NCBI GenBank assembly: GCA_964187785.1
Contig: OZ076409.1
Location: 72,542,001-72,606,000, forward strand
Length of the DNA stretch: 64,000 bases
DNA from: Amphiscolops sp. MND2022
Taxonomy: Eukaryota
Reading direction: 5' to 3'
Part shown: positions 450-38,385 of the stretch, piece after piece
Position numbering within the stretch: position 1 is the first letter of the stretch
How the letters are laid out: every line of letters starts with the position of its first letter
Program-made: the position numbers and the translations under genes
Notes under the pieces: generated by a model
The model's database searches: none
What the model saw: the letters and a program-made list of their open reading frames with translations, nothing else
What the model was told of the DNA's origin: nothing

Positions 450-1570
450 AATCGGTGCTTGTCGGTTATAGTATTAACGCTCAACAACGAGCTTACTGAC
501 AAGAAACAACTTGTTAACAGTTATTAAAAGTATGTATAATTCCACCATGCTCGGTCTTGGCAGATTTTTCATCCCATTAGTTCTTAACGTGTAAATTTTA
601 CTTCCCAAAAACCCTATTTTTGTCAGGTCGAAATTCGAATTTTCGTGTTTTGATCAATATTATTGTGTCTGACGTAACCCGTGGCCTCCAAAATACTCAA
701 AAACAATAGTATGACTGCTATCAAATGCTTCAGTGACATGTGGGGCACGTTAACACGTTTTGGTAAGAAAAATTCCACTTCGAAGTGAAAATTTGGAAGA
801 CACATTGTGTCAATAAAAACTGAATACATGAAAAACGTACCTAACTCCCGTCAATTAGTATTGACGTAGTAACTGTGTTGCGAATTAGAGGTCTATAGAG
901 TGGTGTATGGGAAAACTGTGGCGCATAAAGCGTTGTTCATAACAAAGTTCTTCCAATAACTACAATTGTGTTTTCAAAAGTTTCACTATATTTCACATAT
1001 TCACAGAATGTGATTGATGCTACCTAGTAATGGAAAACCACTGTCGAATGTTCTTTAGTGGACTCAACAGTCCTGAAAATCACAGACATACATCACGATT
1101 CATAATTATACACTCGAGGCTACACAGTAATTTATTTCCGCTAGTTGCTGATAACTGAATTTCCTGATAGCCTTCCAAGTTGGCCTTGTGTCAACCTGGG
1201 AAGGCTATCAGTACAAAACACAAAGAACACAGCTTGTTGTTGCCTCTAATTTGCTGTTGTTTTCGTTAAGATTTTATGGTACCGTTTCTTTATAACATGT
1301 GGTTAACATAAGACAATTTCTCTCTGTATGGAACGACATCCATTGATAAGAAAGATTACAGTTTTTTAGTTGAAAAAGACCTTGAAACTACTGCGCAATC
1401 CATGCAATTTATCCAAAACGTTCATTCATTTCAATAATTTGCGTCCCATTGAGCGTCACAAACCACTATACCTCCTTTAACTGACAGTACAAAGACACAT
1501 CATCCTTTGACCGTCCACAGACCGAAGGCGTGGCGAGGCACGCCTTGCGAAGACCTTTGGCAAAACAGTA
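450..1570 (+). repeat. Highly diverged relic of a ~2-kb-family unit that lacks its own terminal hairpin/GCTAG
   Basis: Colinear matches to unit bodies: GCTTGTCGGTTATAG (~457), TTTTGTCAGGTCGAAATTCGAA...TCTGACGTAACC...ATACTCAAAAAC (618-704), internal hairpin type I (1164-1211), and a degenerate tail GTACAAAGACACAT...AAGGCGTGGCGAGGCACGCCTT-GCGAAGACC (1487-1555). The left boundary is approximate. Confidence 0.8.
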
Positions 1571-3731
1571 CTAACGTCCGTTCGTGACGCATACGAAAAA
1601 CTATTTTATTTTCAACAATCGTCATAAAGCATATTTGTTATATCGGCCTTTCGTTACATTTGTGCAATGATACCTTTATCAGTGAAATATTAAGTTATAC
1701 ATAGGTAACTGCAGTAACTTCGTGATAACCAAAGTGATATCAAAATGTTGTTACATAAATATTTCTGACACAGCGGAATTCCGAAGTGTCATTAGGCACT
1801 TTTTCAGTGCTCGTTAGGAAAGCGAGCACTTTTGCTTGGACCAAACATGCTCGTATCAGACTGGTCATGTGAAGGCAAGTAACGGAATCGAAACAATGTT
1901 CCTCATCAACTTTTTGGTAGCGTCAGAAACACAATGTTTCCTTTTTAATGTCCCCCAGTTGTTTGTTAGCTTCTGTTCATAGAGAATTGTTTCTGCGCAG
2001 ACCAAAATATAGCAAGTTATCCAATACGCCTAATAACGGATTTGCCCCACACAGAACTATCACTTAACATTTTTGTATGTTGACATCTTTTTACCCCGTT
2101 GTTCAACAACTCATGCACCTTCATTTCTTCTTCAACAACTAACTCGCCACCTCCTTGTCGTCTCGTGGTTTGTTTAGCCTCCAGCGCTAGGTGGGCGGGG
2201 GTAATTCCCCAACAAAAATTACGGCCGGCGGGTTGGGTCCTGCCGGACGTTCAAATAGCGCGAAGCATCTAGTAGAAAACAAGGAGTCCTGAAACAGCGA
2301 TTTTAAAATTGAACCGTTAGAATTTGGTTTTAGATTGCATGCGGCCCTAAAATCCCCATACGAATGGAAGTTCCTGCTGGCGTTAAGCGATTGAAATAAT
2401 ATATAAAAAGTTATGGCCCATTTTTGGGTCACCGAGAAGGTCAAAATGAAGAAAATTTTAACTAAGATGCTGATAACTCAAAATGTGTTAATTTTTGGAC
2501 TTTGACTGTGAAACAAGCTTGGAACCTTCATTTCGTGGCTGTGGCATTGCACTGAACACAAAAGATGTAAAGTTTTCACATTTTTTGAAAATTCGACATT
2601 TTTGAATTTTTTTTCACTACTATCAGTACACTATATGTCAAAAACACCTCTGAAAAATTTTTTTATTTGCTTAAATTTAGAAACCTCGGTATCCATGGTT
2701 TCCGTCAGTACCTACTCGCTGCCAAACACTCAACAGTTTGCATCCAATGTGAAAATAAAATTTTTTTCGTGGTCTTAGGTATTTCACAAGGATTTCTCAA
2801 CTTAGTATCAATTTACAAATTGGTCATTTTGAACACATTATTTTCATCGAAGCGTGTCATATACCGCCCTAATGCTCACGAACGGGCCTACTGGCAACGT
2901 TGGAACCATTTATAGTAATAAAAAGTTTTAAAAAAACTTTTTCACCCCGTCTTCAGTCATTTTACACACTTTCGGAACTTAACTTAGAAAAATTTCAACC
3001 AAAAACCCATTTTTTGTCAAGTCGAAAATTCAAATTCAGCTTTTTAAGCAAAATAAATAAATCTGACATAACCAGTGGGGCCCATGAAACTCAAAACCAC
3101 GATTGAGACTGGTATCAATGGCTCCAATAACATATGAGTCGCGATAAGACGCTATTTTGAGCAAAACATATCAATTGAGGTAAAGATCTCGCAAGCCAGC
3201 GATCACTGTGAAATGTGATTTCATCAAAAATTTACTCTTTTTTGTCAATCACTATGTGCACAGAATGCGTAGGGTGCGTTTCAGCACTATAATGAGGTTT
3301 TTGAAGGCATCGAGTTGCTCAAGGGGTGGTATGAGACATTTTTGTCCCATATACTACTGTAGTTTCCAAAATTTTTACCCCAATATCTGGAAATACAAAC
3401 TTGACAAAATACTTTCAACAACTTTATTCAAAGGTTACAATATAGATGAACACTGTGGTTGATAAGAAACTTTCATCTCTTTCGTTTTCGGAAATATTTC
3501 CGTTCGCATGTGTTACATTCATAGCAGAAAAAAAAATCGAAACTGAAAAATACGCTATTTTGCTGATATAGAATCGCAATGATTGTGCCTAAAAACTCTT
3601 TAAACACTTCTAACGCAACCTTACGCACCCAAAATGATCGAAAATGCTATTCACAATGGTGACATGTGCTCTTTCTACGATCCTGGCTGGACAAGGTTTG
3701 CATATTTTTCAAGTACCTGTCAGCTAAATCT

Positions 3732-3781
3732 TGTGATAGCCTTTTCAGTTGGCCTTGTGTCAACTTGGGAAGGCTATCACA
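3732..3781 (+). other. Internal hairpin type I (representative copy)
   Basis: TGTGATAGCCTTTTCAGTTGGC-CTTGT-GTCAACTTGGGAAGGCTATCACA; also at 1164-1211, 6487-6531, 63349-63392 and in every 2-kb unit. Confidence 0.85.
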
Positions 3782-4105
3782 TCACAAAACCATCAACAAA
3801 GATAATTTTTGTTTATTGGATCTTACAGTCGATACTTTTTTTCGTGATTCTATACTACCGTTAGTATATTTCATCAGGTCACCTTACGATTGCATTCAGT
3901 CTTTGATAAAAACCTATGAACTCAAAGTCACATTTATATATTTTTTTGCCAGAAAATAACATCAAAAATATCTAAAATATATAAAATAGAGTCTTTAACA
4001 TTTTTACGTTTCAAGTTTTTGCCGTTATTAGGCCAATCAACGTCCTAGAGCCACATCCTGTCATACTGTACAACGCCACATAGTGTTGCGACGTTCACGG
4101 TCTGT

Positions 4106-4125
4106 GGGCATGCCGAGGCATGCCC
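4106..4125. promoter_or_regulatory. 20-bp palindrome matching the p53-family response element (representative copy; one per unit)
   Basis: GGGCATGCCG+AGGCATGCCC matches 2x RRRCWWGYYY at 19 of 20 positions with no spacer. It is present in all 25 complete units, 52-58 bp before the junction in the copies measured. Binding is not shown. Confidence 0.5.
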
Positions 4126-4177
4126 TTCGACGACGTATGCCGAATACCGCGGGCCTACGCCCGCGCTCCCCGGCTAG

Positions 4178-5451
4178 GTGGTCGTTAGCATGGGATTTTC
4201 TTTATGAGCGTAGTCCACTTTTTTTAGGCCGGGGTAGGGTCCCGGGCCGTTACCAATTTCTTACGGAGGAAAAATGTGAAAATCTGCGAGTTTAAAAAAT
4301 TGGCCCGTACGATTTGGCTGAAAATTGGCATACAGCATCGTCTTGGGAAACAAATGACTTTGTCCTAGTGTCATTTTGCCCAGAAAATTCAAAAAGTTGG
4401 TCAAATTGAAAATTTTTTGTCCGTCCAAGGCAAAAATTTGACTTTTTCGCTTTTTTTGGCCAATTTTCTCAGAATTGGTTGATTTTGGTGCAGTGAGTCA
4501 TAAGAGGTTATGAGGTCTGCAAGTAGCCATCAATCGGCTTGCATAATCAGATTTTGTCAAAAGTGTTTAGTTTTTTCAAAAATTCACACTTTTTTTTATT
4601 TCAATGTTTTTTGATACACTTTATTGAATTTTTTCTAAGTTTCACTAAATTTTTTAAAAATGTTTTAAAACACTATTTTTGCACGTTTTTGATGTTTTAC
4701 GCTCTCCCATATAGGTTTTCGCATACGGGGAACCTGAATCTGGCAACGAAATAACTATTTTCTGCAGTTCAACTTTCGCCATTTTTAATGGTTGAAAAAT
4801 CACTCATTTTCAACCTAACGAGTGAAAATATCAGAATTTAAAAACATAAAGTTGAGTTTAAGGAGACTTACAGGTGGAAACAAATGCTCAGAAACAAATA
4901 GATTTCTTGTATTAGCCAAAGAAAGCCTTTAAAATTCTTTTTACTTTCTTTAAATCAAAATTCAACTATTTTTAGGAAATTTGGCAGTGAAAAAAATTTA
5001 TAATTTTTAAATAAAAAACTTGCTTTGTTGGTCATTTGAGTTTGTCATTATTATCTGTGTAATTCACCAACACGTTTCAATTATTTTGACCCAATTTGAA
5101 AATTTTTGATACTGCATAATCTATCCGAGAGAACGAAACAGTTGTGTACATTCCATCTCCCTCCTGGGGGAGATGAGAATGTACTTGCCAAAGTCCAGGT
5201 ACTACAGACCATATTTGTTTTTATGCGACGCCGTCTATACTTGTGCACATGAATACAAATTGTTTGTCTGAATTTTACTTCTGACTTGACGTATGCTGTA
5301 CGTTTGGTACTGACAATACCCATCATATACATAACAAGCGTCAACGCCACATACCCTTACCAACGCCCATAGTCCGTAGGCATGCCGAGGCATGCCTTTC
5401 GACGACGCGCGCCAAACACAAGCGCGCCCGCACTTTTGCGGTAGCGGCTAG
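4178..5451 (+). mobile_element. Unit 2, unique body (1274 bp)
   Basis: Body not alignable by eye to the 2-kb family. It keeps head stem GGCCGGGG-TAGGGT-CCCGGGCC (4227-4248), type II hairpin (5146-5184), variant palindrome AGGCATGCCGAGGCATGCCT (5378-5397) and tail CCGCA-CTTT-TGCGG-TAGCGGCTAG. Confidence 0.6.
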
Positions 5452-6839
5452 GTGGTTGGGGCGGTCCCCAGAACGCACAAGGAGGCGCGGGGAGGGTCCT
5501 GCGCCGACATAGAATAATTTCATATAATACTAGTATCCTACATGGGTGTTTTAGAGGCGATTTTGGAATCTAACCGTAGGATTTGGATAATTTTTTGCAT
5601 GCGGCCATAACTCGAAATTCTAAGAACTTTTTCCTACTGTCATTTTCCCCGCAAATTGTTTTTTGTTGACTTATGGCCGAAAAACCGGAAATAACGTCCT
5701 TTTTAGACGTTATATCCGAAGTGTCGTCATAACTTTTTTCCAGGGCATGCTAGCGTTCTCGTTCACTTTTACACTTAGTTGCAGCATCTCAAAATACAAC
5801 TGGTGGAAAATTTTGGTTGCATTCGGATCACCCCCCATCGAGATAGAAGGGTTCCCCCCTCCAATTTTACCCCCCAAATTTGCAAAAGAGCCAATTTTGA
5901 GCATGAAGCCGAGGATTTAGCGTACCCGCACCCTCCTGATGTTTTGCTGTACGTATTGGGGTCAATCTGACGACATGTGTGGTTTTCACCCCCAACCCCC
6001 CCTTGGACCGGAAATGACACTTTTTTGTGTTTTTGGCAGAATTTAGCCTTTTTCATTATTAGGCAGTCGTTTTAGGGACTCCTAGCAGGATATCGAAATT
6101 GAAATACAACCTGATCACAACCCAGTTACAACATGTTGGCCACTTGGAGGTATCATCATGACCGGAAGTGGGGTCAACCCCCCTTTTTGTGACCGCTTTT
6201 TGACCTTGTGCCCCAAAATGCCAACATCTTGAGGCCTAATGAGGCATTCAAATCTGTACAAAGATAAAATGTTAGACAACCGAAGTCCCGGAAGATCTTT
6301 AGCATATACCGGAAGTTACCCCCCATGACCGGAAGTTACCCAATGTGACCGGAAATGGTCCAAAAAATAATGTAAAGTTGAATTTTTCACTATTTCAAGA
6401 CCACTTAATTGAAACTTTTCAATCTCAAAACTAGCGTACTGGCTTGTTTTGCTGAATTTATGGAAATTGGTGAGCTCTATCGCCCCCGATAGCCTTCGAA
6501 GTTGACCTTGCGTCAACTTTGGAGGCTATCGATAAAGAAAAATGAACAACAAAGTACATTGTTGCTCTCGTTTTTTTCCCGTTGTTTTTCCTCAAACATT
6601 CTTGAGACATATACATGGCCGTTAGTTGAAATCAATATTTAGCCCATGTTATAGCTGGAGCAGCGAAGCGTTACACAGACTAGTGTGGTTTTGAAATCAC
6701 ACTATTTAAATTAACAACTGACCGTCTTAGTCAACTCCACACATTCATACCAACGCCCACCGTCTGTGGGCATGCCGAGGCATGCCCTTCGACGACGTAT
6801 GACGAATCCACTCCAACGACACCCGCAGTCCTCAGCTAG
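5452..6839 (+). mobile_element. Unit 3, 1.39-kb family (1388 bp); near-identical to unit 15
   Basis: Distinct body with CCGGAAG/A motifs; head GGGG-CGGT-CCCC and GGCGCGGG-GAGGGT-CCTGCGCC; type I hairpin 6487-6531; conserved tail palindrome 6768-6787. Confidence 0.6.
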
Positions 6840-8821
6840 GTGGGCGGGGGTAATTCCCCTTCAAAAAATTCGGCCGGCGGGTTGGGTCCTGCCGGACGTC
6901 AAATAGTGTGAAACATCCAGTAGGAAACGGCGACATTTATCAGCGATTTTAAAATTTAACCGTTAGAATTCGGACTTGGAGTGCATGCGGCCCCAAAATG
7001 CCCATACGAATGGAAGTTCCTGCTGACGTTAAGCGACAAAAACACTTTATAAAAAGTTATGGCCCATTTTACGTTCACTTAGAGAGGTAAAATGAGGAAA
7101 ATTTTAACAAAGTTGCTGATAACTCAAAATACATTAATTTTTGGACTTTGACTGTGAAACAAGCTTGGAACCTTCATTTCGTGGCTGTGGCATTGCACTG
7201 AACACAAAAGATGTAAAGTTTTCACATTTTTTGAAAATTCGACATTTTTGAATTTTTTTCACTACTATCAGTACACTATATGTCAAAAACACCTCTGAAA
7301 AAATTTTTTGTTTGCTTAAATTTAGAAACCTCGGTATCCATGGTTTCTGTCGGAACCTACTCGCAGCCAAACACTCAACAGTTTGCATCCAATGTGAAAA
7401 TAAAATTTTTTTTGGGGTCATAAGCGTTTCACAAGGATTTCTCAACTTAGTATTAATTTACAAAATGGTCATTTTGAACACAATATTTTCATCGAGGCTT
7501 GTCGGCTATAGCCTTAATGTTCTAGAACGGTCCTACTGGCAACGTAGGAACCATTTATAGTAATAGAAAGTTTTAAAAAAATTTTTTCATCCGGTCTTCA
7601 GTCATTTTTCAGTCATTCGGAACTTAACTTAGAAAAATTTCGACCAAAATACCCATTTTTTGTCAGGTCGAAAATTCAAATTCAGATTTTTAAGCAAAAT
7701 TATTAACTCTGACGTAACCCATGGGGCCCATGATACTCAAAACAACGATTGACACTGGTATCAATGGCTCCAATAACATATGAGTCGCGATAAGACGTTA
7801 TTTTGAACAATACGTCTCAATTGAGGTAAAGATCTCGCAAGCCAGCGATCACTGTGAAATGTGATTTCATCAAAAATTTACTCATTTTTGTCAATCACTA
7901 TGTGCACAGAATGCGTAGGGTGCGTTTCAGCACTATAATGAGGTTTTTGAATGCATCGAGTAGCTCAAGGGGTGGTATGAGACATTTTTGTCCCATATAC
8001 TTCTGTATTTTCCAAAATTTTTAGCCCAATATCTGGAAATACAAACATGACAAACAACTTTCAACTACTTTATTCAAAGGTTACAATATAGATGAACACT
8101 GTGGTTGATCAGAAACTTTCATCTCTTTCGTTTTCCGAAATATTTCCCTTCGCATGTGTTACATTTGTAGCAGAAAAAAAATCGATACTGAAAAATACGC
8201 TATTTTGCTAATATAGAATCGCAATGATTGTGCCTAAAAACTCTTTCAACACTTCTAGCGCGACCTTACGCACCCAAAATTATCGAAAATGCTATTCACA
8301 ATGGTGACATGTGCTCTTTCAACGATCCTGACTGAACAATTTTCGCAAATTATTCAAGTACCTGTTAACTGAATCTCGTGATAGCCTTTTAAGTTGGCCT
8401 TGCGTCAACTTGGGAAGGCTATCACATCAAAAAATTTCCAACAAAAATACTTTTTGTTTATTGGAAATGACAGTCGATATATAATTTCGTGATTCTATAC
8501 TACCGTTAGTACCTTCCATTAAGTCACCTGACGATTGCATTCAGTCTTTGATAAATACCTATGAACTCGAAGTCATATTTATAAATTTTTTGCCAAAAAT
8601 AAACATCAAAATTATCCAAATTAATTAAAAATGAGTCTTTAAAGTTTTTGTTTTTCTTTTTTTACTGTTATTAGGCCCATCAACTTCCTACAGCCACGCT
8701 CTCTGTCATTAGTACAACACCACATAGTGTAGCGACGTTCATGGTCTGTGGGCATGCCGAGGCATGCCCTTCGACGACGTATGCCGAATACCGCGGGCCT
8801 ACGCCCGCGCTCCCCGGCTAG
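6840..8821 (+). mobile_element. Unit 4, ~2-kb family (1982 bp)
   Basis: Junction to junction and colinear with unit 1; head variant ...CCCCTTCAAAAAATTCGG shared with units 8 and 14. Confidence 0.6.
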
Positions 8822-10802
8822 GTGGGCGGGGGTAATTCCCCAACAAAAATTACGGCCGGCGGGTTGGGTCCTGCCGGACGTCAAATAGCAAAGAATATCT
8901 AGTAGGAAACGGCGACACAGAATCGCGATTTTTAAATCTAACCACAATTTTTTGGACTTGGAGTGCATGCGGCCCTGAAATGCCCATACGAATCGAAGTT
9001 CCTGCTGACGTTAAGCGATTGAAATAATATATAAAAAGTTATGGCCCATTTTTCACTCACATAGAAGGGTAAAATGAGGAAATTTTTAACAAAGTCGCTG
9101 ATAACTCAAAATGTGTTAATTTTTGGACATTGACTGTGAAACAAGCTTGGAACCTTCATTTCGTGGCTGTGGCATTGCACTGAACACAAAAGATGTAAAG
9201 TTTTTACATTTTTTGAAAATTCGACATTTTTGAAATTTTTTTCACTACTATCAGTACCCCATATGTCAAAAACGCTTCAGAAAAAATTTTTTATTTGCTT
9301 TAAATTGGAAACCTTGGTATCCATGATTTCTGTCGGAACCTACTCGCAGCCAAACACTCAACAGTTTGCATCCAATGTGAAAATTAAATTTTTTTCGGGG
9401 TCATAAGCGTTTCACAAGGATTTCTCAACTTAGTATTAATTTACAAAATGGTCATTTTGAACACAAGATTTTCATCAAGGCTTGTCGGCTATAGCCTTAA
9501 TGTTCTAGAACGGTCCCACTGGCAACGTAGGAACCATTTATAGTAATAGAAATTTTTAAAAATTTTTTTCACCCGTTCTTCCATCATTTTTCAGTCATTC
9601 GGAACTTATCTTAGAAAAATTTCGACCAAAATACCCATTTTTTGTCAGGTCGAAAATTCAAATTCAGCTTTTTAAGCAAAATTATTAACTCTGACGTAAC
9701 CCATGGGGCCCATGATACTCAAAACAACGATTGACACTGGTATCAATGGCTCCAATAACATATGAGTCGCGATAAGACGTTATTTTGAGCAATACGTCTC
9801 AATTGAGGTAAACATCTCGCAAGCCTGGGATCACAGTGAAATGTAAATTCATCAAAAATTTACTCATTTTTGTCAATCACTATGTGCACAGAGTGCGTAG
9901 GGTGAGTTCCAGCACTATAATGAGATTTTTGAAGGCATCGGGTTGCTCAAGGGGTGGTATGAGACATTTTTTTCTATATACTACTGTATTTTCCAAAACT
10001 TTTAGCCCATTATCTGGAAAAACTAACTTGACAAAATACTTTCAATGATTTTATTCAAAGGCTACAATGTAGATGAACCCAGTGGTTGATCAGAATCTTT
10101 CATCTCTTTCGTTTTCCGAAATATTTCCCTTCGCATGTGTTACATTTGTAGCAGAAAAAAATCGAAACTGAAAAATACGCTATTTTGCTTATATAGAATC
10201 GCAATGATTGTGCCTAAAAACTCTTTAAACACTTCTAACGCGACCTTACGCACCCAAAATGATCAAAAATGCTATTCACAATGGTGACATGTGCTCTTTC
10301 AACGATCCTGACTGAACAATTTTCGCAAATTATTCAAGTACCTGTTAACTGAATCTCGTGATAGCCTTTTAAGTTGGCCTTGTGTCAACTTGGGAAGGCT
10401 ATCACATCAAAAAATTTTCAACAAAAATACTTTTTGTTTATTGGAAATGACAGTCGATATATAATTTCGTGATTCTATACTACCGTTAGTACCTTCCATT
10501 AAGTCACCTGACGATTGCTTTCAGTCTTTGATAAATACCTATGAACTCGAAGTCTTATTTATTAATTTTGTGCTAAAAATAAACATCAAAACTATCCAAA
10601 TTATTTAAAATTGAGTCTTTACCGTTTTTGTTTTTCTTTTTCTACTGTTATTAGGCTCATCAACTTCCTACAGCCACGCTCTCTGTCATACTGTACAACG
10701 CCACATAGTGTTGCGACGTGCACAGTCTGTGGGCATGCCGAGGCATGCCCTTCGACGACGTATGCCGAATACCGCGGGCATACGCCCGCGCTCCCCGGCT
10801 AG
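8822..10802 (+). mobile_element. Unit 5, ~2-kb family (1981 bp)
   Basis: Junction to junction; head variant ...GTCAAATAGCAAAGAATATC shared with units 6, 10, 18, 22, 23. Confidence 0.6.
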
Positions 10803-12787
10803 GTGGGCGGGGGTAATTCCCCAACAAAAATTACGGCCGGCGGGTTGGGTCCTGCCGGACGTCAAATAGCAAAGAATATCTAGTAGGAAACGGCGACACA
10901 GAATCGCGATTTTTAAATCTAACCACAATTTTTTGGACTTGGAGTGCATGCGGCCCTGAAATGCCCATACGAATCGAAGTTCCTGCTGACGTTAAGCGAT
11001 TGAAATAATATATAAAAAGTTATGGCCCATTTTTCGCTCACAAAGAAGGGTAAAATGAGGAAATTTTTAACAAAGTCGCTGATAACTCAAAATGTGTTAA
11101 TTTTTGGACATTGACGGTGAAACAAGCTCGGAACCTTCATTTCGTGGCTGTGGCATTGCACTGAACACAAAAGATGTAAAGTTTTTACATTTTTTGAAAA
11201 TTCGAAATTTTTGAAATTTTTTTCACTACTATCAGTACCCCATATGTCAAAAACGCCTCAGAAAAATTTTTTTATTTGCTTTAAATTGGAAACCTTGGTA
11301 TCCATGGTTTCTGTCGGATCCTACTCGCAGTCAAACACCCAACAGTTTGCATCCAATGTGGAAATAAAAAATTTTTCGGGGTCATAAGCGTTTCACAAGG
11401 ATTTCTCAACTTAGTTTCAATTTACAAATTGGTCACATTGAACACATTATTTTCATCGAAGCGCGTCAGATACCGCCCTAAAGCTCACGAACGGTCCTAC
11501 TGGCAACGTAGCAACCATTTATAGTAATATAAAAGATTAAAAAAATTTTTTCACCCGGTCTTCAGTCATTTTTCAGTCATTCGGAACTTAACTTAGAAAA
11601 ATTTCGACCGAAATATCCATTTTTTGTCAGGTCGAAAAATCAAATTCAGATTTTTAAGCAAAATTATTAACTCTGACGTAACTCATGGGGCCCATGATAC
11701 TCAAAACAACGATTGACACTGGTATCAATGGCTCCAATAACATATGAGCCGCGATCGGACGTTATTTTGAGCAATACGTCTCAATTGAGGTAAAGATCTC
11801 GCAAGCCAGCGATCACTGTCAAATGTGATTTCATCAAAAATTTACTCATTTTTGTCAATCATTATGTGCACAGAATGCGTAGGGTGCGTTTCAGCACTAT
11901 AATGAGATTTTTCAATGCATCGAGTTGCTCAAGGGGTGGTACGAGACATTTTTGTCCCATATACTACTGTATTTTCCAAAATTTTTAGCCCAATATCTGG
12001 AAATACAAACTTGACAAAATACTTTCAACTACTTTATTCAAAGGTTACAATATAGATGAACACTGTGGTTGATCAGAAACTTTCATCTCTTTCGTTTTCC
12101 GAAATATTTTCCTTCGCATGTGTTATATTTGTATCAGAAAAAAAATCGAAACTGAAAAATACGCTATTTTGCTAATATAGAATCGCAATGATTGTGCCTA
12201 AAAACTCCTTAAACACTTCTAACGCAACCTTACGCACCCAAAATGATCGAAAATGCTATTCACAATGGTGACATGTGCTCTTTCAACGATCCTGGCTGGA
12301 CAAGGTTTGCATATTTTTCAAGTACCTGTCAGCTGAATCTTGTGATAGCCTTTTAAGTTGGCCTTGTGTCAACTTGGGAAGGCTATCACATCAAACAACC
12401 ATCAACAAAAACAATTTTTGTTTATTGGATATTACAGTTGATACCTTATTTCGTGATTCTATACTACCGTTAGTATATTCCATGAGGTCACCTTACGATT
12501 GCATTCAGACTTTGATGAAAACCTATGAACTCAAAGTCACATTTATATATTTTTTGCCCAAAAAAATCATCAAAAACATCTAATATATATAAAATTGAGT
12601 CTTTAACTTTTTTACGTTTCAAGTTTCGGCCGTTATTAGGCCAATCAACTTCCTACAGCCACGCTCTCTGTCATACTGTACAACGCCACATAGTGTTGCG
12701 ACGTGCACGGTCTGTGGGCATGCCGAGGCATGCCCTTCGACGACGTATGCCGAATACCGCGGGCCTACGCCCGCGCTCCCCGGCTAG
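10803..12787 (+). mobile_element. Unit 6, ~2-kb family (1985 bp); near-identical to unit 18
   Basis: Shares diagnostic variants with 42365-44349 (AAGCTCGGAACC, GGATCCTACTCGCAGTC, GCGCGTCAGATAC, GCGATCGGACG). Confidence 0.6.
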
Positions 12788-15023
12788 GTGGGCGGGGGTA
12801 ATTCCCCAACTAAAAAATCGGCCGGCGGGTAGGGTCCTGCCGGCCGTCCAAAATCAAAAATATACTAGTAGAAAACGGCCGGTCAAACGAGCTATTTTTT
12901 TATTTAACCGTTAGAATTTGGGTTTAGATTGCATGCGGCCATGAAATGGCCATACGAATCGAAGTTCCTGCTGACGTTTTGCGATTGAAACACTTTATAA
13001 AAAGTTATGGCCAATTTGTCATTCACCTAGAAGGGCAAAATGAGGAAAATTTTAACAAAGTCACTGATAACTCAAAATGTAATAATTTTTGGACTTTGAC
13101 AGTGATACAAGCTTGGAACTGTCATTTCGTGGCTGTGGCATTGCACTGAACACAAAAGATGTAAAGTTTTCACATTTTTTGAAAATTCGACATTTTTGAA
13201 TTTTTTTTCACTACTATCAGTACACTATATGTCAAAAACGCCTCTGAAAAAAATTTTTATTTGCTTAAAATTAGAAACCTTGGTATCCATGGTTTCCGTC
13301 AGTACCTACTCGCCGCCAAACGCTCAACAGTTTGCATTCAATGTGAAAATATAATTTTTTTCGAGGTCATAGGTGTTTCACAAGGATTTCTCAACTTAGT
13401 ATCTATTTACAAATTGGTCATTTTGAACACATTATTTTCATCGAAGCGTGTCAGATACCACCCTAATGCTCACGAATGGGCCTACTGGCAACGTTGGAAC
13501 CATTTTTAGTAATAGAAAGTATTAAAAAAATATTTTCACCCGGTCTTCAGTCATTTTTCAGACATTCGGTACTTAACTTAGAAAAATTTCGCATCAAAAA
13601 CCCATATTTGGTAGGGTCGAAATTTGAAATTCAGTTTTTTATGCAAAATTATTAACTCTGACGTAACCAGTGGAGCCCATGATACTCAAAAACACGATTG
13701 GGACTGGTATCAGTGGCTCCAATAACATATGAGCCGCGATAAGACGTTATTCAGAGCAAACGCTCTAAATCGAAGTAAACATCTCTGAAGCCTGGGATCA
13801 CAGTGAAATGTGATATCACCAAAAGTTTACTCTTTTTTGTCAATCACTATGTACACAGAGTGCGTAGGGTGAGTTTCAGGACTATAATGAGGTTTTTGAA
13901 GTAATCGCGCTGCTCAAGGGGTGGTATGAGACTATTTTTTCCCATATACTACTACATTTCCATAAATTTGCAGTCCATTGTCCTGGAAAGATAACTTCAC
14001 AAAAACAATTTTTCTACTCTATTCAGTTATTAGAATAAAGTTGAACACTGTGGTTGATCAGAAATGCTCAATTCTTTTGGTTTTTAAAAAAATTCCTTCG
14101 CATTCGTTACATTTGTGGAAGGAAGGTTATCAGTAGCTCCAAAAAAAAACGAAATTTAGCACGAACAGACATGCAACGATGCAAAGCAAAAACGTTTTTA
14201 CAACTTCCGACGTCATTATTTTACCCAAGAAGTTCGAAAATATCATTCGCAATGCTGTCATTCGCTATATATACGATCGCGGTCTATTTACAAACATTTA
14301 GATTTCATTGTTCTGCTTGAAAACCAATTTTTGTCAGGTCGAAATTTTAAATTTTGCCTGGGGAGCAATACCCTTCACGCTGAAGTAAACAGTGGGGCCC
14401 AAGTTACTCAAAAACAAGAAAGAGACTGCTACAATATGTCCTAATAACATATGGACCACGATAGTACGTTTTTCACACAAAAAACTCTCATCCGAAGTAA
14501 ATATGTTGAAAGCTTTTAATCACCGTGAGAAGTGATTTCATCAAAAAATAACTCTTTTTTGTCAATCACTATTTACACAGAATTTGTAAAGTTAGTTTGA
14601 GTCATGAAATGAGGCTTTACCGTAATATGGGTTGCTCAAGGTGTTATATAAGACAAAAACTTCCTCTTTTCTACTAGCTTCTTCAAATATTTCAACCCTT
14701 TGTCACAATAAGTTAATATTCAAAATCTCTTTGAAATGTATCTTTATGTTGGGGTGAAGTCTAAGAACAATAACTATGATCGAAGAATGCTAGTACTGGT
14801 GTTTGAACCATGTCCGGATGAACAAATCACAAAATCATCAAAAAATTGTTCCCTTTTTTGGTTATTTTGGCAGTACTAAAAATGTTAGCCGATAAATAAT
14901 TTTTTCGATGGCACCATTGGATTCCTCTCAAAAAGTTGGTTATATGACCTGTGTAATAACCCCGTATCTTTTCAATTTAAATATATTTAAAAAGCCAACT
15001 ATTTTGACCAAAATCCTAAAAAT

Positions 15024-16365
15024 CATACCATTTCCTAAAAATTTTCAAATGCACCCCATTTGACGTATAAGATAAGCACAGAAAACTATCATATACCGAT
15101 CAACTCTACTCCTATTGTAGATTATTAGAATTTTGTTAAGAATGAATTTTGATGAATATTAAAAAAATTTTGAACCCTCCAAAAATGGGCCAAAATTACA
15201 CGAAAAAATTGACCTTAAAATACCAAAATGTCAAAAAATCATCAAAACCCAGGCTTCTTGGGGTTCTATCAACTCCGCGTGGTCCACAGAGTATGCTAAA
15301 ACAGGTTTTACCCGTTTTTGAGCAATATGTGAAAAAGCCGACATTTTTGGGAAAGAAAAACATACCATTTCCTAAAAAAATTCAAATGCACGTCATTTGC
15401 CGTATTAGAATAGCACAGAAAACTATCACATACCAATCAACTCTACTTTTATTGCAGATGAACAGAATTTTGTTTAGAATAAATTTTACCGGATAATAAA
15501 AAAATTTGAATCCTTCAAAAATGGGCCAAAAATACACGAAAAAATGGACCTTAAAAATTTAAAATGTCAAAAAATCATCAAAACAACAGCTTCTTGGGGT
15601 TCTATCAACTCCACGAGGTCCACAGAGTATGCTAAAACAGGTTTTACCCGTTTTTGAGCAATATGTGAAAAAGCCGACATTTTTGGGAAAGAAAAACATA
15701 CCATTTCCTAAAAAAATTCAAATGCACGCCATTTGCCGTATGAAAATAGCACAGAAAACTATCACATACCAATCAACTCTACTTTCATTGCAGATGAACA
15801 GAATTTTGTTTAGAATAAACTTTACCGGATAATAAAAAAATTTGATTCCTTCTAAAATGGGCCAAAATTACACGAAAAAATGGACCTTAAAATTTTAAAA
15901 TGTCAAAAAATCATCAAAACCACGGCTTCTTGGGGTTCTATCAACTCCACGTGGTCCACAGAGTATGCTTAACCCGGTTTTACCCATCTTTGAGCAAAAT
16001 GTGAAAATACCGACATTTTTGGAAAAGAAAAACATGCCATTTTCTAATAAATTTCAAATGCACGCCATTTGCTGTATGAGAATTACACAGAAAGCTGTCA
16101 CATACCGATCAACTCTACTTCCATTGTAGATTATCAGAAGTTTGTTTAGAATAAATTTTGAAGGATAATAAAAAAATTTGAATCCATCAAAAATGGGCCA
16201 AAATTACACGAAAAAATTGACCTTAAAATATCAAAATGTCAAAAAATCATCAAAACCACAATTTCTTGGCGTTCTATCAACTCCATATGATACCAAACCA
16301 GGTACTGCCAATCGTTTGAGTTATAATAAAAAAACGTCTTTTTTGGCAAGAATTCCATACCATAA
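15024..16365 (+). repeat. Internal tandem repeat, ~4 x 336 bp (unit 7)
   Basis: CATACCATTTCCTAAAA anchor at 15024, 15361, 15697 and 16033; last copy degenerate. Confidence 0.9.
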
Positions 16366-16574
16366 ATAATAATCATGTTCCATATAAGAAGCGAATCATT
16401 TCAGATATATACCCTGTTCATTTTTTTAATATTACCGATTATTAATTTAATAGATGTTTTGAATGTGAGCTTCCTAAAAGGTTTAGGTGTGATGATACGT
16501 AAATAGAACCTTAGTTTCATCGAAATCTCAATTGAATATGTCCAATCTTAACCATCAGATAACAAGAAACACTT

Positions 16575-16617
16575 AAGTACATTCCATCTCCCCATCGGGG
16601 GAGATGAGAATGTACTT
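16575..16617 (+). other. Internal hairpin type II (representative copy)
   Basis: AAGTACATTC-CATCTCCCC-ATCG-GGGGAGATG-A-GAATGTACTT with one bulged A; also at 5146, 29279, 34049, 48142 and 52913. Confidence 0.85.
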
Positions 16618-17549
16618 TCGAGAAGCCAAATACGTCCAACATTCAAACTTTTGTAACTTTGTATGTAACTCCTGAAACGAAGAAGGAATAAAATTGTTTC
16701 TGGTACATACATGAGTCTTTACTTCAGCTTCTATTTCTGCTGAACAAAACCATTCGACTCTTTTGCCGGAGTTAAGATCGATTGTATTACCCAGTGAACA
16801 AAGGCATGACTGAAAACGTTTACTACTTTGTTCATAATTTTCCGGCCTTCCGAAATGATGAAACGTCCACATAACTAAGATAGCAAGTGAATGACTGCGA
16901 AATGCACCTTATTAGATGAGGTAAATAACGTGTAAAACTCTCCTTTATCCTAACATGAGGTTGAGTAATGATCATTTGAGAATAGTTTGATATGTGAATA
17001 CAATAGTATAAAACAAGTACATTTTATATGAATAACGCCGTGGAAAGCGTTCAGAAAGGACATTAGGCTTGTTTGGAACATGTATGTGTGGTGTCCCTTG
17101 GTGGCGTTCGCTTAGTGTATATGTCGAGGGGTATTCGAGTTGTTATGATAGAATTTACACACAAGTCTTTTGTTTTTTGGTTTTTTTAAAATGTCGTTAA
17201 GTACCTGCATTCTATCCCCTTCTCAGAGATGACGTGAAGTTACGTTTGCTAAATAAATGTCATCGAAAGATCACACTCCCGACGAAATTAACTATCTTAA
17301 CACGTGTTTAGAATTTTAAATAAACAACCGTATAAGATTTTTATATTTCATTGAGTTTGATGAAGTCTTTTGTTCTTCTCACTACTATTTCAACCAATAC
17401 ACATATCCGTTACCATATCACATGTCTCCATTAGTACAACGCCACATAGCGTTCCGACGCCCACAGTCTGTGGGCATGCCGAGGCATGCCCTTCGACGAC
17501 GTATGGCAAATGGAGCCATGCCCGCCGTCTTTACGGCGGTAGCGGCTAG

Positions 17550-19530
17550 GTGGGCGGGGGTAATTCCCCTTCAAAAAATTCGGCCGGCGGGTTGGGTCCT
17601 GCCGGACGTCAAATAGTGTGAAACATCCAGTAGGAAACGGCGACATAAATCAGCGATTTTAAAATTTAACCGTTAGAATTCGGACTTGGAGTGCATACGG
17701 CCCCAAAATACCCATACGAATCGAAGTTCCTGCTGACGTTAAGCGATAAAAACACTTTATAAAAAGTTATGGCCCATTTTACGTTCACTTAGAGAGGTAA
17801 AATGAGGAAAATTTTAACAAAGTTGCTGATAACTCAAAATACATTAATTTTTGGACATTGACTGTGAAACAAGCTTGGAACCTTCATTTCGTGACTGTGG
17901 CATTACACTGAACACAGAAGATGTAAAGTTTTTACATTTTTTGAAAATTCGACATTTTTCAAATTTTTTTCACTACTATCAGTACCCCATATGTCAAAAA
18001 CACCTCAGAAAAAATTTTTTATTTGCTTTAAATTGGAAACCTTGGTATCCATGGTTTCTGTCGGAACCTACTCGCAGCCAAACACCCAACAGTTTGCATC
18101 AAATGTGAATTAAAAATTTTTTTCGAGGTCATAAGGGTTTCACAAGGTTTTCATAACTTAGTATTAAACTACAAACTGGTCATTTTCAACATAATATCTT
18201 TGTCGAGGCATGTCGGATATAGTCCTATTGCTCACGAACGGTCCTACTGGCAACGTAATAACCATTTATAGAAATGTAAAGTTATAAAAAAAATTTTCAC
18301 CCGGTCTTCAGTCATTTTTCAGTCATTCGGAACTTAACTTAGAAAAATTTCGACCAAAATATCCATTTTTTGTCAGGTCGAAAAATCAAATTCAGATTTT
18401 TTAGCAAAATTATTAACTCTGACGTAACCCATGGTGCCCATGATACTCAAAACAACGATTGACACTGGTATCAATGGCTCCAATAACATATGAGTCGCGA
18501 TAAGACGTTATTTTGAGCATTACGTCTCAATTGAGGTAAAGATCTCGCAAGCCAGCGATCACTGTGAAATGTGATTTCATCAAAAATTTACTCTTTTTTG
18601 TCAATCACTATGTGCACAGATTGCGTAGGGTGCGTTTCAGCACTATAATGAGGTTTTTGAAGGCATCGAGTTGCTCAAGGGGTGGTATGAGACATTTTTG
18701 TCCCATATACTACTGTATTTTCCAAAATTTTTAGCCCAATATCTGGAAATACAAACTTGACAAAATACTTTCAACTACTTTATTCAAAGGTTACAATATA
18801 GATGAACACTGTGGTTGATCAGAAACTTTCATCTCTTTCGTTTTCCGAAATATTTCCCTTCGCATGTGTTACATTCGTAGCAGAAAAAAAATCGAAACTG
18901 AAAAATACGCAATTTTGCTAATATAGAATCGCAATGATTGTGCCTAAAAACTCTTTAAACACTTCTAACGCAACCTTACGCACCCAAAATGATCGAAAAT
19001 GCTATTCACAATGGTGACATGTGCTCTTTCTACGATCCTGGCTGGACAAGGTTTGCATATTTTTCAAGTACCTGTCAGCTAAATCTTGTGATAGCCTTTT
19101 CAGTTGGCCTTGTGTCAACTTGGGAAGGCTATCACATCAAAAAACCATCAACAAAAGTAATTTTTGTTTATTGGATCTTACAGTCGATACTTTTTTTCGT
19201 GATTCTATACTACCGTTAGTATATTTCCTCAGGTCACCTTACAATTGCATTCAGTCTTTGATAAAAACCTATGAACTCAAAGTCACATTTATATATTTTT
19301 TTGCCAAAAAAAACATCAAAAACATCTAAAATATATAAAATAGAGTCTTTAACATTTTTACGTTTCAAGTTTCTGCCGTTATTAGGCCAATCAACGTCCT
19401 AGAGCCCATCCTGTCATACTGTACAACGCCACATAGTGTTGCGACGTGCACAGTCTGTGGGCATGCCGAGGCATGCCCTTCGACGACGTATGCCGAATAC
19501 CGCGGGCCTACGCCCGCGCTCCCCGGCTAG
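17550..19530 (+). mobile_element. Unit 8, ~2-kb family (1981 bp)
   Basis: Junction to junction; head like units 4/14, 3' part like units 1/10. Confidence 0.6.
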
Positions 19531-21522
19531 GTGGGCGGGGGTAATTCCCCAACAAAAAAATCGGCCGGCGGGTCGGGTCCTGCCGGCCGTCCAAAATCAA
19601 AATCCTCCTAGTAGAAAACGGCATGTCAAACGAGCTATTTTTTTATTTAACCATACGAATTTCACCATTTTTTGCATGCGGCCCTGAAATGGCCATACGA
19701 GACGAAGTTCCTGCTGACGTTTTGCGATGTAAATGTTTTATATAAAGTTGTGGCCGATTTGTCACTTACCTAGAAGGGCAAAATGAGGAAAATTTTTACA
19801 AAGTCGCTGATAACTCAAAATGTGGTAATTTTTGGACTTTGACTGTGAAACAAGCTTGGAACCTTCATTTCGTGGCTGTGGCATTGCATTGAACACAAAA
19901 GATGTAAGGTTTTTACATTTTTTGAAAATTCGACATTTTTGAAAATTTTTTCACTACTATCAGTACCCCATATGTCAAAAACACCTCAGAAAAAAATTTT
20001 TATTTGCTTTAAATTGAAAACCTTGGTAGCCATGGTTTCTGTCGGAACATACTCGCTGCCAAACACCCAACAGTTTGCATCCAGTGTGAATTTAAAAATT
20101 TTTTCGAGGTCTTAGGTGTTTCACAAGGATTTCTCAACTTAGTATCAAATTACAAATTGGTCATTTTAAACACATTATTTTCATCGAAGCGTGTCAGATA
20201 CCGCCCTAATGCTCACGAACGGGCCTACTGGCAACGTTGAAACAATTTATCGTAATAGAAAGTTTTGAAAAAAATTTTTCACCCGGTCTTCAGTCATTTT
20301 TCACACATTCGGAACTTAACTTAGAAAAATTTCAACCGAAAAACCCATTTTTTGTCAGGTCGAAAATTCGAAGTCAGATTTTTAAGCAAAATTATCAACT
20401 CTGACGTAACCAGTGGGGCCCATGATACTCAAAACAACGATTGGGGTTGGTACCAATGGCTCCAATAACATATGAGTCGCGATAAGACGTTATTTTGAGC
20501 AATATGTCTCAATTGAGTTAAAGATCTCGCCAACCAGTGATCACTGTGAAATGTAAATTCATTAAAAATTTACTCATTTTCGTCAATCACCATGTGCACA
20601 GAGTGCGTAGGGTGAGTTCCAGCACTATAATGAGGTTTTTGAAGGCATCGGGTTGCTCAAGGGGTGGTATGAGACATTTTTTTCCTATATACTACTGTAT
20701 TTTCCAAAAGTTTTAGCCCATTATCTGGAAAAACTAACTTGACAAAATACTTTCAATAACTTTATTCAAAGGTTACAATGTAGATGAACCCAGTGGTTGA
20801 TCAAAAATTTTCATCTCTTTCGGTTTCCGAAATAATTCCCTTCGAATGTGTTACATTTGTAGCAGGAAAAAAACCGAAACTAAAAAATACGCGATTTTGC
20901 TGAGATAGAATCGCAATGGTTGCCCCTAAAATCTCTTTAAATACTTCTAACGCGACCTTATGGACCCAAAATGATTGAAAATGCCATTCACAATGCTGAC
21001 ATGTGCTCTTTCGACGATCCTGGCTAGACAAGTTTTGCATATTTTTCAAGTACCTGTTAACTGAATTTTGTGATAGCCTTTTAAGTTGGCCTTGTGTCAA
21101 CTTGGGAAGGCTATCACATCAAAAAACTTTCATCAAAAAGACTTTTTGTTTTTACAATAATGTAGTCGATAGTTATTTTCGTGATTTTACAATACCGTTA
21201 GTACCTTCCGCCAGGTCAGCTGACGATTGCATGCTGTCTTTGATAAAAACGTATGAACACCAAGAAAATTTTGTTGTATTTTTGTTGAAGAAAAGTATTA
21301 ATAAATAATAAAAATATAATTCTAACCTTAAACAACTATAAATTTGCTTAACCGTTATTAGTCCTACCATCTATCATCAGCCTATGCCATGGCCCGGTGA
21401 TTAGTAGTACAACGCCACATAAAGTAGCGACGCCCACAGTCTGTGGGCATGCCGAGGCATGCCCTTCGACGACGTATGGCAATTTTAGCGTAGCCCGCGG
21501 TCACTACCGCGGTAGCAGCTAG
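19531..21522 (+). mobile_element. Unit 9, ~2-kb family (1992 bp)
   Basis: Head like units 16/20; tail CCGCGGT-CACT-ACCGCGG-TAGCAGCTAG like unit 22. Confidence 0.6.
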
Positions 21523-23506
21523 GTGGGCGGGGGTAATTCCCCAACAAAAATTACGGCCGGCGGGTTGGGTCCTGCCGGACGTCAAATAGCAAAGAATATC
21601 TAGTAGGAAACGGCGACACAGAATCGCGATTTTTAAATCTAACCACAATTTTTTGGACTTGGAGTGCATGCGGCCCTGAAATGTCCATACGAATCGAAGT
21701 TCCTGCTGACGTTAAGCGATTGAAATAATATATAAAAAGTTATGGCCCATTTTTCACTCACATAGAAGGGTAAAATGAGGAAATTTTTAACAAAGTCGCT
21801 GATAACTCAAAATGTGTTAATTTTTGGACATTGACTGTGAAACAAGCTTGGAACCTTCATTTCGTGGCGGTGGCATTGCACTAAACACAAAAGATGTAAA
21901 GTTTTTACATTTTTTGAAAATTCGACTTTTTTGAAATTTTTTTCACTACTATCAGTACCCCATATGTCAAAAACGCCTCAGAAAAAAATTTTTATTTGCT
22001 TTAAATTGGAAACCTTGGTATTCATGGTTTCTGTCGGAACCTACTCGCAGCCAAACACCCAACAGTTTGCATCCAAAGTGAAAATAAAATTTTTTTCGGG
22101 GTCATAAGCGTTTCACAAGGATTTCTCAACTTAGTATTAATTTACAAAATGGTCATTTTGAACACAATATTTTCATCGAGGCATGTCGGCTATAGTCCTA
22201 TTGCTCACGAACGGTCCTACTGGCAACGTAATAACCATTTATAGAAATGTAAAGTTATAAAAAAAATTTTTCACCCGGTCTTCAGTCATTTTTCAGTCAT
22301 TCGGAACTTAACTTAGAAAAATTTCGACCAAAATATCCATTTTTTGTCAGGTCGAAAAATCAAATTCAGATTTTTAAGCAAAATTATTAACTCTGACGTA
22401 ACCCATGGGGCCCATGATACTCAAAACAACGATTGACACTGGTATCAATGGCTCCAATAACATATGAGTCGCGATAAGACGTTATTTTGAGCATTACGTC
22501 TCAATTGAGGTAAAGATCTCGCAAGCCAGCGATCACTGTGAAATGTGATTTCATCAAAAATTTACTCTTTTTTGTCAATCACTATGTGCACAGAATGCGT
22601 AGGGTGCGTTTCAGCACTATAATGAGGTTTTTGAAGGCATCGAGTTGCTCAAGGGGTGGTATGAGACATATTTGTCCCATATACTACTGTATTTTCCAAA
22701 ATTTTTAACCCAATATCTGGAAATACCAACTTGACAAAATACTTTCAACTACTTTATTCAAAGGTTACAATATGGATGAACACTGTGGTTGATCAGAAAC
22801 TTTCATCTCTTTCGTTTTCCGAAATATTTCCTTTCGCATGTGTTACATTCGTAGCAGAAAAAAAAATCGAAACTGAAAAATACGCAATTTTGCTAATATA
22901 GAATCGCAATGATTGTGCCTAAAAACTCTTTAAACACTTCTAACGCAACCTTACGCACCCAAAATGATCGAAAATGCTATTCACAATGGTGACATGTGCT
23001 CTTTCTACGATCCTGGCTGGACAAGGTTTGCATATTTTTCAAGTACCTGTCAGCTAAATCTTGTGATAGCCTTTTCAGTTGGCCTTGTGTCAACTTGGGA
23101 AGGCTATCACATCAAAAAACCATCAACGAAAATAATTTTTGTCTATTGGATCTTACAGTCGATACTTTTTTTCGTGATTTTATACTACCGTTAGTATATT
23201 TCATCAGGTCACCTTACGATTGCATTCAGTCTTTGATAAAAACCTATGAACTCAAAGTCACATTTATATATTTTTTTGCCAAAAAAAACATCCAAAATAT
23301 CTAAAATATATAAAATAGAATCATTAACATTTTTACAGTTCAAGTTTCTGCCGTTATTAGGCCAATCAACGTCCTAGAGCCACATCCTGTCATACTGTAC
23401 AACGCCACAAAGTGTTGCGACGTGCACAGTCTGTGGGCATGCCGAGGCATGCCCTTCGACGACGTATGCCGAATACCGCGGGCCTACGCCCGCGCTCCCC
23501 GGCTAG
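21523..23506 (+). mobile_element. Unit 10, ~2-kb family (1984 bp)
   Basis: Junction to junction; colinear with the family. Confidence 0.6.
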
Positions 23507-36998: not shown

Positions 36999-38385
36999 GT
37001 GGTTGGGGCGGTCCCCAGAACGCACAAGGAGGCGCGGGGAGGGTCCTGCGCCGACGTAGAATAATTTCATATAATACTAGTATCCTACATGGGTGTTTTA
37101 GAAGCGATTTTGGAATCTAACCGTAGGATTTGGATAATTTTTTGCATGCGGCCATAACTCGAAATTCTAAGAACTTTTTCCTACTGTCATTTTCACCGCA
37201 AATTGTTTTTTGTTGACTTATGGCCAAAAAACCGGAAATAACGTCCTTTTTAGACGTTATATCCGAAGTGTCGTCATAACTTTTTTCCAGGGCATGCTAG
37301 CGTTCTCGTTCACTTTTACACTTAATTGCAGCATCTCAAAATACAACTGGTGGAAAATTTTGGTTGCATTCGGATCACCCCCCACCGAGATAGAAGGGTT
37401 CCCCCCTCCAGTTTTACCCCCCAAATTTGCCAAAAAGCCAATTTTGAGCATGAAGCCGAGGGTTTAGCGTACCCGCACCCTGTTGATGTTTTGTTGTACG
37501 TTTTGAGGTCAATCTGACGACATGTGAGGTTTTCACCCCCAACCCCCCCTGGGACCGGAAATGACACTTTTTTGTGTTTTTCGGCAGAATTTAGCCTGTT
37601 TCATTATTAGGCAGTCGTTTTAGGGACTCGTAGCAGGATATCGAAAGTGAAATACAACCTTATCACAACCCAGTGACAACATGTTGGCCACTTGGAGGTA
37701 TCATCATGACCGGAAGTGGGGTCAACCCCCCTTTTTGTGACCGCTTTTTGACCTTGTGCACCAAAATGCCAACAACTTGAGGCCTAATGACGCATTCAAA
37801 TCTGTACAAAGATAGAATGTTAGACAACCGAAGTCCCGGAAGATCTTTAGCATATACCGGAAGTTACCCCCCATGACCGGAAGTTACCCAATGTGACCGG
37901 AAATGGTCCAAAAATTAATGTAAAGTTAATTTTTTCACCATTTCAAGACCACTTCGTTGAACATTTTCATTCCCAAAACTAGCGTACTGGCTTGTTTTGC
38001 TGAAATTATGGAAATTGATGAGCTCTATCACCCCCGATAGCCTTCGAAGTTGACCTTGCGTCAACTTTGGAGGCTATCGATTCTGAAAATGAACAACAGA
38101 GTTCATTGTTGCTCTCGTTTTTTTCCGTTGTTTTTCCTCAAACATTCTTGAGACATAAAAATGGCCGTTAGTTGAAATCAATATTTAGCCCATGTTATAG
38201 CTGGAGCAGCGAAGCGTTACACAGACTAGTGTGGTTTTGAAATTACATTATTTGAATTAACAACTGACCGTCTTAGTCAACTCCACACATTCATACCAAC
38301 GCCCACCGTCTGTGGGCATGCCGAGGCATGCCCTTCGACGACGTATGACGAATCCACTCCAACGACACCCGCAGTCCTCAGCTAG
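36999..38385 (+). mobile_element. Unit 15, 1.39-kb family (1387 bp)
   Basis: Near copy of unit 3 with different neighbours on both sides. Confidence 0.6.

Follow-up and report, generated by a model that had tools for sequence, protein, structure and literature searches.

The question raised by this locus is what reads a 20-bp dyad that recurs in every unit of a long tandem array and resembles a p53-family response element. The window, by which we mean the whole 64,000-nucleotide stretch that was analysed, contains ends of non-autonomous DNA elements in an unusual cassette-like array, for which a p53 interpretation is possible and not preferred. The coordinates of the features are shown in Table 1.

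Table 1. Positions in the window of the array, its junction core and the recurrent features of its units
Feature	Position	Strand	Remarks
Head-to-tail array, 25 complete non-coding units	2186..63812	+	26th unit runs past the window end
Junction core GCTAGGTG (8 bp)	4173..4180	+	exact occurrences
36-bp invariant block (GTCTGT + dyad + TTCGACGACG)	4100..4135	+	alignment of sixteen 2-kb units
20-bp dyad, unit 1	4106..4125	.	p53 consensus scan
Further dyad starts	5378 (A..T variant), 6768, 8750, 10731, 12716, 17472, 19459, 21445		
Further dyad starts, continued	23435, 25422, 30176, 34939, 36927, 38314, 40298, 42293		
Further dyad starts, rest	44278, 49039, 53803, 55796, 57784, 59775, 61758, 63735		
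Diverged dyad homologue AGGCGTGGCGAGGCACGCCT	1526..1545	.	in sibling element, end block 1484-1566
Terminal GC-rich hairpin, unit 1	4148..4165	+	7-bp stem, 4-nt loop; 7 nt before core
Left-end stem-loop, unit 4	6874..6895	+	covarying stem, conserved loop GGG(T/G)NGGGTCC
Internal dyad GATAGCC...GGCTATC	3735..3778	.	19 copies, that at 1166 belonging to the diverged element
Second internal dyad CATTCCATCTCCC...GGGAGATGAGAATG	5149..5185	.	6 copies: unit 2 and five 4.76-kb units
Central 336-bp tandem repeat, about 4 copies	15019..16285	+	in each 4.76-kb unit; also 27723, 32483, 46583, 51347

A shuffled array joined at an 8-bp core

The units are 1.3-4.8 kb long and have several unrelated bodies. Sixteen are about 1.98 kb and five about 4.76 kb; the others are unit 2 (1274 bp), units 3 and 15 (1388 bp) and unit 25 (1973 bp), whose bodies matched the 2-kb family only at the right end (longest blastn matches, 50-115 bp). 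The core GCTAGGTG occurred 26 times, always at a unit border (first at 2186, last at 63805), and was absent from the opposite strand.

Coding capacity was negligible by the searches made. The window had seven stop-to-stop frames of at least 120 aa (123-131 aa), none of which looks coding, and among 75 shorter frames (at least 50 aa, below the 120-aa class) from six representative bodies none reached the Pfam cut-off and six gave weak scores. No autonomous element or enzyme (RepHel, Rep, or YR) was found within the window by the ORF and Pfam scans. There were no tRNA genes in the window, and an Rfam scan of positions 1-20000 gave three sub-threshold matches (E 0.45-1), none at the dyad; an RNA gene or ribozyme was rejected on these two results.

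None of the 12 pairs with more than 95.5% similarity were neighbours, and neighbour similarity was 0.505 against 0.461 in random order (P 0.18). Since the core lies only at junctions and near-identical units are never adjacent, the units seem to enter one by one at the core. Tracts of 99% identity between unit 1 and units 11, 17, and 21 extend from core to core. Other tracts of 97%-99% cross junctions, and some high-identity tracts begin within units, so homologous recombination or conversion is at work in the array as well. Mosaic units (U7/U12, U13/U20, and U9/U16/U20) have near-identical bodies with different left segments of 80-750 bp, indicating exchange between subfamilies.

At the first junction (2186) the core is present and the upstream block is absent. 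The sequence at 1600-2190, which ends in this full core, resembled none of the units clearly (best E 0.03) and contains a dyad of its own, AGTGCTCG...CGAGCACT, near 1807-1831. It is either the genomic target that the founding element used or a right end from an unrelated, dyad-less family.

The dyad lies inside a longer invariant block

A scan for two RRRCWWGYYY half-sites with at most one mismatch gave 25 matches in the window, all on the plus strand; shuffled windows gave 0.12 ± 0.36 expected matches, with a largest value of two. The copy was identical, GGGCATGCCGAGGCATGCCC, in 24 of the 25 units, unrelated bodies included, and read AGGCATGCCGAGGCATGCCT in unit 2 (5378), all as the initial annotation had described and located them. 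Its description of a near-perfect p53-family element was also borne out: each array copy matches the consensus at 19/20 positions, the sole mismatch being G at position 10 every time, the cores are CATG, the half-sites have zero spacer, and the published binding data make such a site near optimal. As a dyad, the motif has 9-bp arms with a GA spacer between them, and inside each arm is the self-palindrome GGCATGCC, repeated with a period of 10 bp. All 25 copies go back to one ancestral end and so do not count as 25 independent observations.

The dyad ends 52 bp before the end of CTAG in 14 units, 54 or 55 bp in one each, 57 bp in three, 58 bp in five, and 59 bp in one. The 52-58 bp given earlier is hereby corrected to a measured range of 52-59 bp; the accompanying "about 5 helical turns" was not upheld, because a spread of 7 bp gives no support for helical phasing between dyad and junction, which we rejected.

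The dyad had further been called the most invariant motif of the units, and this did not stand. It sits in an invariant run of 36 bp, and its own positions 1 and 20 vary across the array; the ten bases flanking it on the 3' side are fixed in 25/25 units, and the junction core is fixed at 26/26 junctions. Among the sixteen 2-kb units, the bodies averaged 0.60 parsimony steps per column and had no invariant window of 20 columns; the longest invariant run of these units was the block, 36 columns with zero changes. Its edges are sharp, with 19 steps in the 30 columns upstream and 11 in the 15 downstream.

The way in which the block is conserved was compared with the p53 binding profile, in which the core is fixed and the outer positions and flanks are free, and did not match it. 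The eight positions at which p53-family proteins are tolerant (1, 2, 9, 10, and their mirrors) are invariant in the 2-kb units (P ~0.03 at body rates), as are 16 bases flanking the dyad (P ~0.001 at body rates); both values assume independent columns. The constraint on the block is wider than a p53 footprint. The core positions C4, G7, C14, and G17, whose free loss had been proposed as an argument against p53, were retained in 27/27 copies (25 in the array, the diverged homologue, and one metagenome relative). On either side of the dyad stand CRACG pentamers, four in all, whose near-constant positions (about -110, -90, -50, and -47 from the junction) recall iterons. CpG observed/expected in unit bodies was 0.72-0.97, and biallelic columns had 257 transitions against 319 transversions; this points to little methylation-driven decay, so that an origin of the CATG cores by plain decay of CpG is unlikely in this array.

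Two relatives from outside the array extend the comparison. The first, a 26th dyad in the window that the initial annotation had missed, belongs to a sibling element at 1-1600 that is ~68%-72% identical to the 2-kb family in alignable parts and has a small hairpin near 1575-1590. Its end block was recovered with an nhmmer E value of 2.2e-7 and has no core after it; the GATAGCC dyad is collinear in this element, which supports homology. AGGCGTGGCGAGGCACGCCT differs from the unit 2 type of dyad at positions 5, 8, and 16, none of which is among the eight p53-tolerant positions. Positions 5 and 16 changed as mirror partners and still pair, the change at position 8 is unpaired, and the match to the p53 consensus falls to 16/20, position 8 being among the four mismatches. 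The element may come from a family with another terminus or target.

The second relative is a metagenome contig (L001) with a complete head-to-tail junction (E 4.6e-32), the A..T variant dyad (19/20), the same flanks, and the left stem-loop. Its core variant, GCGAGGTG (878-890 of the contig), has CGAG in place of CTAG; seen in a single copy, it may be a family variant or a private mutation. L001 was the sole match of a metagenome scan whose pattern required the flanks, GG/CC, and the CGAG loop of the dyad, so relatives that differ there were beyond its reach. No matches came from prokaryote genomes (two scans), phages, or plasmids, and together with the absence of genes this makes the window look eukaryotic. 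Four viral-contig scans were empty, and one viral contig (L002) has no blastn match to the units. All 26 viral loci picked out with a left-end pattern were judged chance (26/26; best nhmmer E 0.013, stems of at most 3 bp). At least three public sequencing runs share 7%-9% of the window's words, in short and shallow contigs; none of the listed runs was RNA, none of the listed alignment rows covered the dyad, and the runs contributed no usable variation.

With the relatives included, dyad positions 1/20 and 5/16 are seen to change as mirror pairs (diverged homologue and L001). These are two events among related sequences and are modest evidence; the A..T variant is common to unit 2, L001, and the diverged copy and may be one ancestral state. 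Of the 64 stem cells in eight representative ends, 63 are paired; two pairs are altered on both sides, five of the eight pairs never vary, and the CGAG loop is kept in 8/8.

It could be argued that the block is under no selection, that gene conversion or unequal exchange keeps its copies uniform as in a satellite, and that palindrome self-repair produces the mirror changes. The mosaic units and the 97%-99% tracts that span junctions are in keeping with this. Homogenisation does not account for conservation that ends sharply at both edges of 36 bp, for bodies that switch exactly at the 8-bp core while the terminal hairpin type goes with the upstream body, for neighbours no more alike than random, or for the retention of the block in L001, which comes from another data set. 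We consider this explanation highly improbable.

Hairpins at the ends and the case for a fixed sequence

All 25 right ends have CTAG, and a right-end hairpin of 5-7 bp precedes it in 21/25 units; in 20/25 it has one of four different, fully paired 7-bp stems. The best right-end stem was 3 bp or less in units 3, 15, 19, and 25 and in L001. The type of terminal hairpin tracks the upstream body, and unrelated bodies switch exactly at the core. Every unit has a left stem-loop ~40-55 bp after the core, in which three unrelated paired sequences surround a fixed loop. The left ends (e.g., 6835-6895) are G-rich with several G tracts, and in form they are like a rolling-circle origin hairpin, yet they lie 40-55 bp away from the crossover core. 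Long-range pairing of the left end with the right block did not rise above shuffles, nor did a near-copy of the core that some unit types carry in inverted orientation ~95 bp upstream.

Farther inside, the array units have the GATAGCC dyad at a distance of 300-420 bp from the junction that follows, and a dyad related to CATTCCATCTCCC...GGGAGATGAGAATG is also present in L001. The two internal dyads are mutually exclusive per unit type, lie 270-940 bp before the junction, and have outer bases that covary. They may represent another cis-element that the units require, or what is left of elements once captured.

A purely structural role for the 20-bp dyad was weighed against these neighbours: a single-strand hairpin, formed in a DNA intermediate or a small end-encoded RNA, whose sequence is fixed by recent descent. 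The dyad can form an 8-bp stem on either strand (~-10 kcal/mol, z ~-3.3), the diverged copy still folds (-9.5), and the two compensated pairs and the CGAG loop kept in all representatives agree with folding. Five of the eight pairs never vary, however, while the neighbouring terminal and left stems have swapped whole sequences; the outer GTC/GAC extension is uncompensated in the diverged copy, and no Rfam family (1-20000 scanned) or tRNA was found. The other end stems covary freely and the dyad stem keeps its letters, so the dyad is a fixed sequence and not mere structure. We regard the purely structural explanation as very unlikely. Retention of sequence in the dyad stem points most simply to recognition by a protein.

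A site for the elements' own enzyme or for p53

Two kinds of protein come into question. We think it probable, from the pattern of conservation, that the dyad is a cis-site for the elements' own mobilising enzyme, of a rolling-circle/HUH type or a tyrosine recombinase. A palindrome of the mobilising enzyme had been offered as an alternative in the initial annotation, and it is favoured over p53 here because the tolerant positions and the 16 flanking bases are fixed and changes occur in mirror pairs. As to the class of enzyme, a rolling-circle HUH (Helitron-like) protein has about an even chance, a tyrosine recombinase of the Crypton kind is a tentative second candidate, and some other class is unlikely.

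The dyad would then lie in the middle of a 36-bp recognition block that a family of non-autonomous DNA elements carries close to the right end, kept because the mobilising protein reads a fixed, two-fold-symmetric sequence as duplex or extruded hairpin. The enzyme would be supplied by an autonomous partner elsewhere. It would bind the block together with the two covarying end hairpins and cut within GCTAGGTG, and one unit would be released or copied as a circle. From the order of the units and the ends of the tracts, we infer that monomers would rejoin at an existing core, regenerating the junction and giving a shuffled, cassette-like array. The resemblance to p53 sites would then be incidental or a secondary use. 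This leaves the p53 match, which arises in ~3 in 10,000 random dyads, to chance.

It is this match that gives weight to the other candidate, in which the dyad is a selected p53/p63/p73 response element and a host tetramer at each unit end would license mobilisation, or else transcription of the autonomous parent through the circle junction. The licence would be given in the germline or upon DNA damage, and the sites of the enzyme would lie in the flanks. p53-family genes are present across animals and in choanoflagellates, in the parts of the survey cited (PMC8901663). The dyad has the 19/20 consensus match, CATG cores, and a spacer of 0, and random dyads of the same geometry fit the consensus with at most one mismatch at a rate of ~3e-4; self-palindromic arms occur in only 0.4%-0.6% of random dyads. 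The tightest half-site of zebrafish p53 is GGGCATGCCC (Brandt et al. 2009, PMC2807882); by the binding values excerpted from that study, the half-sites of the array equal or are near the tightest measured binders, and a G in position 10 does little harm (PMC2807882, Table 1). The retention of C4, G7, C14, and G17 in every copy agrees with this, and the CGTG/CACG cores of the diverged copy are of a type that p63, p73, and Drosophila p53 tolerate in the same excerpts (PMC2807882).

The initial annotation had also stated that some transposons carry p53 sites, and published cases exist (PMC3308033, PMC3485254). LTR10, MER61, L1, and Alu elements carry them (PMC3308033), and the zebrafish element EnSpm-N6_DR is a precedent with working p53 sites (cited part of PMC3485254). 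The EnSpm sites are, in the same part, specific to one family and barely more conserved than the element itself (93% vs. 90%; PMC3485254), and as a precedent this counts against selection for p53 binding.

Other results also tell against p53. Positions 1, 2, 9, and 10 of a half-site hardly affect the binding of any p53-family protein tested, in the data excerpted from PMC2807882, and in the array these positions and the 16 flanks are equally fixed, so another constraint covers the block anyway. The joint change of A1 and T20 is not required by p53, the 52-59 bp spacing has no phasing, and the diverged copy has four consensus mismatches, position 8 included. A host site required in cis by several families has a low prior, and the units contain several dyads each; set against the strength of the match, these considerations make a selected p53 element unlikely. 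A host p53/p63 protein, if present, would probably bind the dyad in vitro, and control of the elements by p53 is possible. Somewhat more doubtful is an integron-like eukaryotic cassette array in which each cassette is gated by a p53/p63 tetramer 50-60 bp from the cut site. Unrelated non-coding elements would there enter one at a time at an 8-bp core that restores itself, with germline or DNA-damage signalling in control of excision or insertion.

What would follow differs between the two proteins. If the dyad is a site of the elements' own enzyme, the block marks the binding site of a eukaryotic enzyme that puts kilobase cassettes into a short core, which is regenerated; the block would help to trace the autonomous element and might yield a tool for site-specific integration. 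It would also be a warning that transcription-factor look-alikes in element ends call for a position-by-position test of conservation. If the dyad serves p53, a DNA element uses the genome's damage sensor as a mobilisation factor required in cis, which goes beyond bringing along a site for later co-option by the host.

The array was compared with known element classes. Canonical Helitrons (HLE1/Helitron1) and their non-autonomous derivatives, as set out in the excerpts cited, share with it the lack of terminal inverted repeats (TIRs) and unrelated bodies between shared ends (PMC11417382, PMC3627910, PMC4588551). Further likenesses are a short hairpin, rich in GC, that closely precedes CTAG (21/25 units) and the central satellite of the long units. 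A hairpin followed by CTAG at the right end of the units would work like a Helitron terminator. The differences are that GTG and not TC follows CTAG at 26/26 junctions, with the opposite strand also lacking TC; that there is no target between A and T; that the first unit is preceded by a full core; that L001 has CGAG and lacks CTRR; and that a fixed 36-bp dyad block lies 50 bp inside the end of units in a shuffled single-unit array. A canonical Helitron was rejected on the absence of the 5' TC start and of the site between A and T.

Helitron2/Helentron elements (HLE2), in the sections cited, share hairpins at both ends with compensatory changes (PMC3627910, PMC11417382). Their asymmetric terminal inverted repeat of 8-15 bp was not found above shuffles in the array (best, 7-9 bp with one mismatch, 12 units, shuffle P 0.12-0.91), the core has no TT and there is no junction between T and T; this class was rejected as well. 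Subtelomeric Helitron-derived arrays are satellite-rich, and the passages cited do not describe them as single units in shuffled order joined at one fixed core (PMC11934779, PMC13085455).

Cryptons, in the portions cited, likewise lack TIRs and have n+1 short direct repeats around n units (PMC3212892, PMC8869645), and in the array the 8-bp core flanks every unit. The direct repeats of the array would work like Crypton recombination sites (PMC3212892). The circle-and-reintegrate logic of Cryptons fits the array, and some families, e.g., CryptonV, are target-specific, as described in part of PMC8869645. The repeats reported in these portions are 4-6 bp, in contrast with 8 bp here, and animal CryptonA/I are reported there without terminal repeats, unlike the array units. 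Inverted arms of 11-13 bp around a core of 6-8 bp were not found, with 0-7 of 15 positions paired in register in 13 junction types.

Replitrons share a short direct terminal repeat, a right-end palindrome, and HUH logic, and HUH enzymes often read hairpins (excerpts of PMC10288648). They are known in those excerpts from plants, algae, and protists, and the array shows neither their fuzzy right ends nor their variable duplications. The direct repeat and the right-end palindrome are present in form, but the core does not allow the exact termini to be placed within it.

The right end of the array presumably resembles that of IS607/Fanzor2 elements. Mollusc Fanzor2 elements have TIRs and TTAN duplications in the cited section of their description (bioRxiv 10.1101/2023.08.09.552727); both are absent in the array, and this identity was dropped. 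The literature covered gave no account of elements of this group, nor of ends like these with a p53-like dyad; Repbase and Dfam lay outside this coverage, so the families may already be catalogued.

Finally, EnSpm-N6_DR (PMC3485254) and the LTR10, MER61, L1, and Alu sites (PMC3308033) have in common with the array a consensus-type p53 element on a mobile element, and in the parts cited they were shown to be p53-responsive or were cloned as bound, whereas the present dyad is known from sequence alone. Unlike those known transposon sites, it is common to several unrelated non-coding bodies and lies within a longer invariant block.
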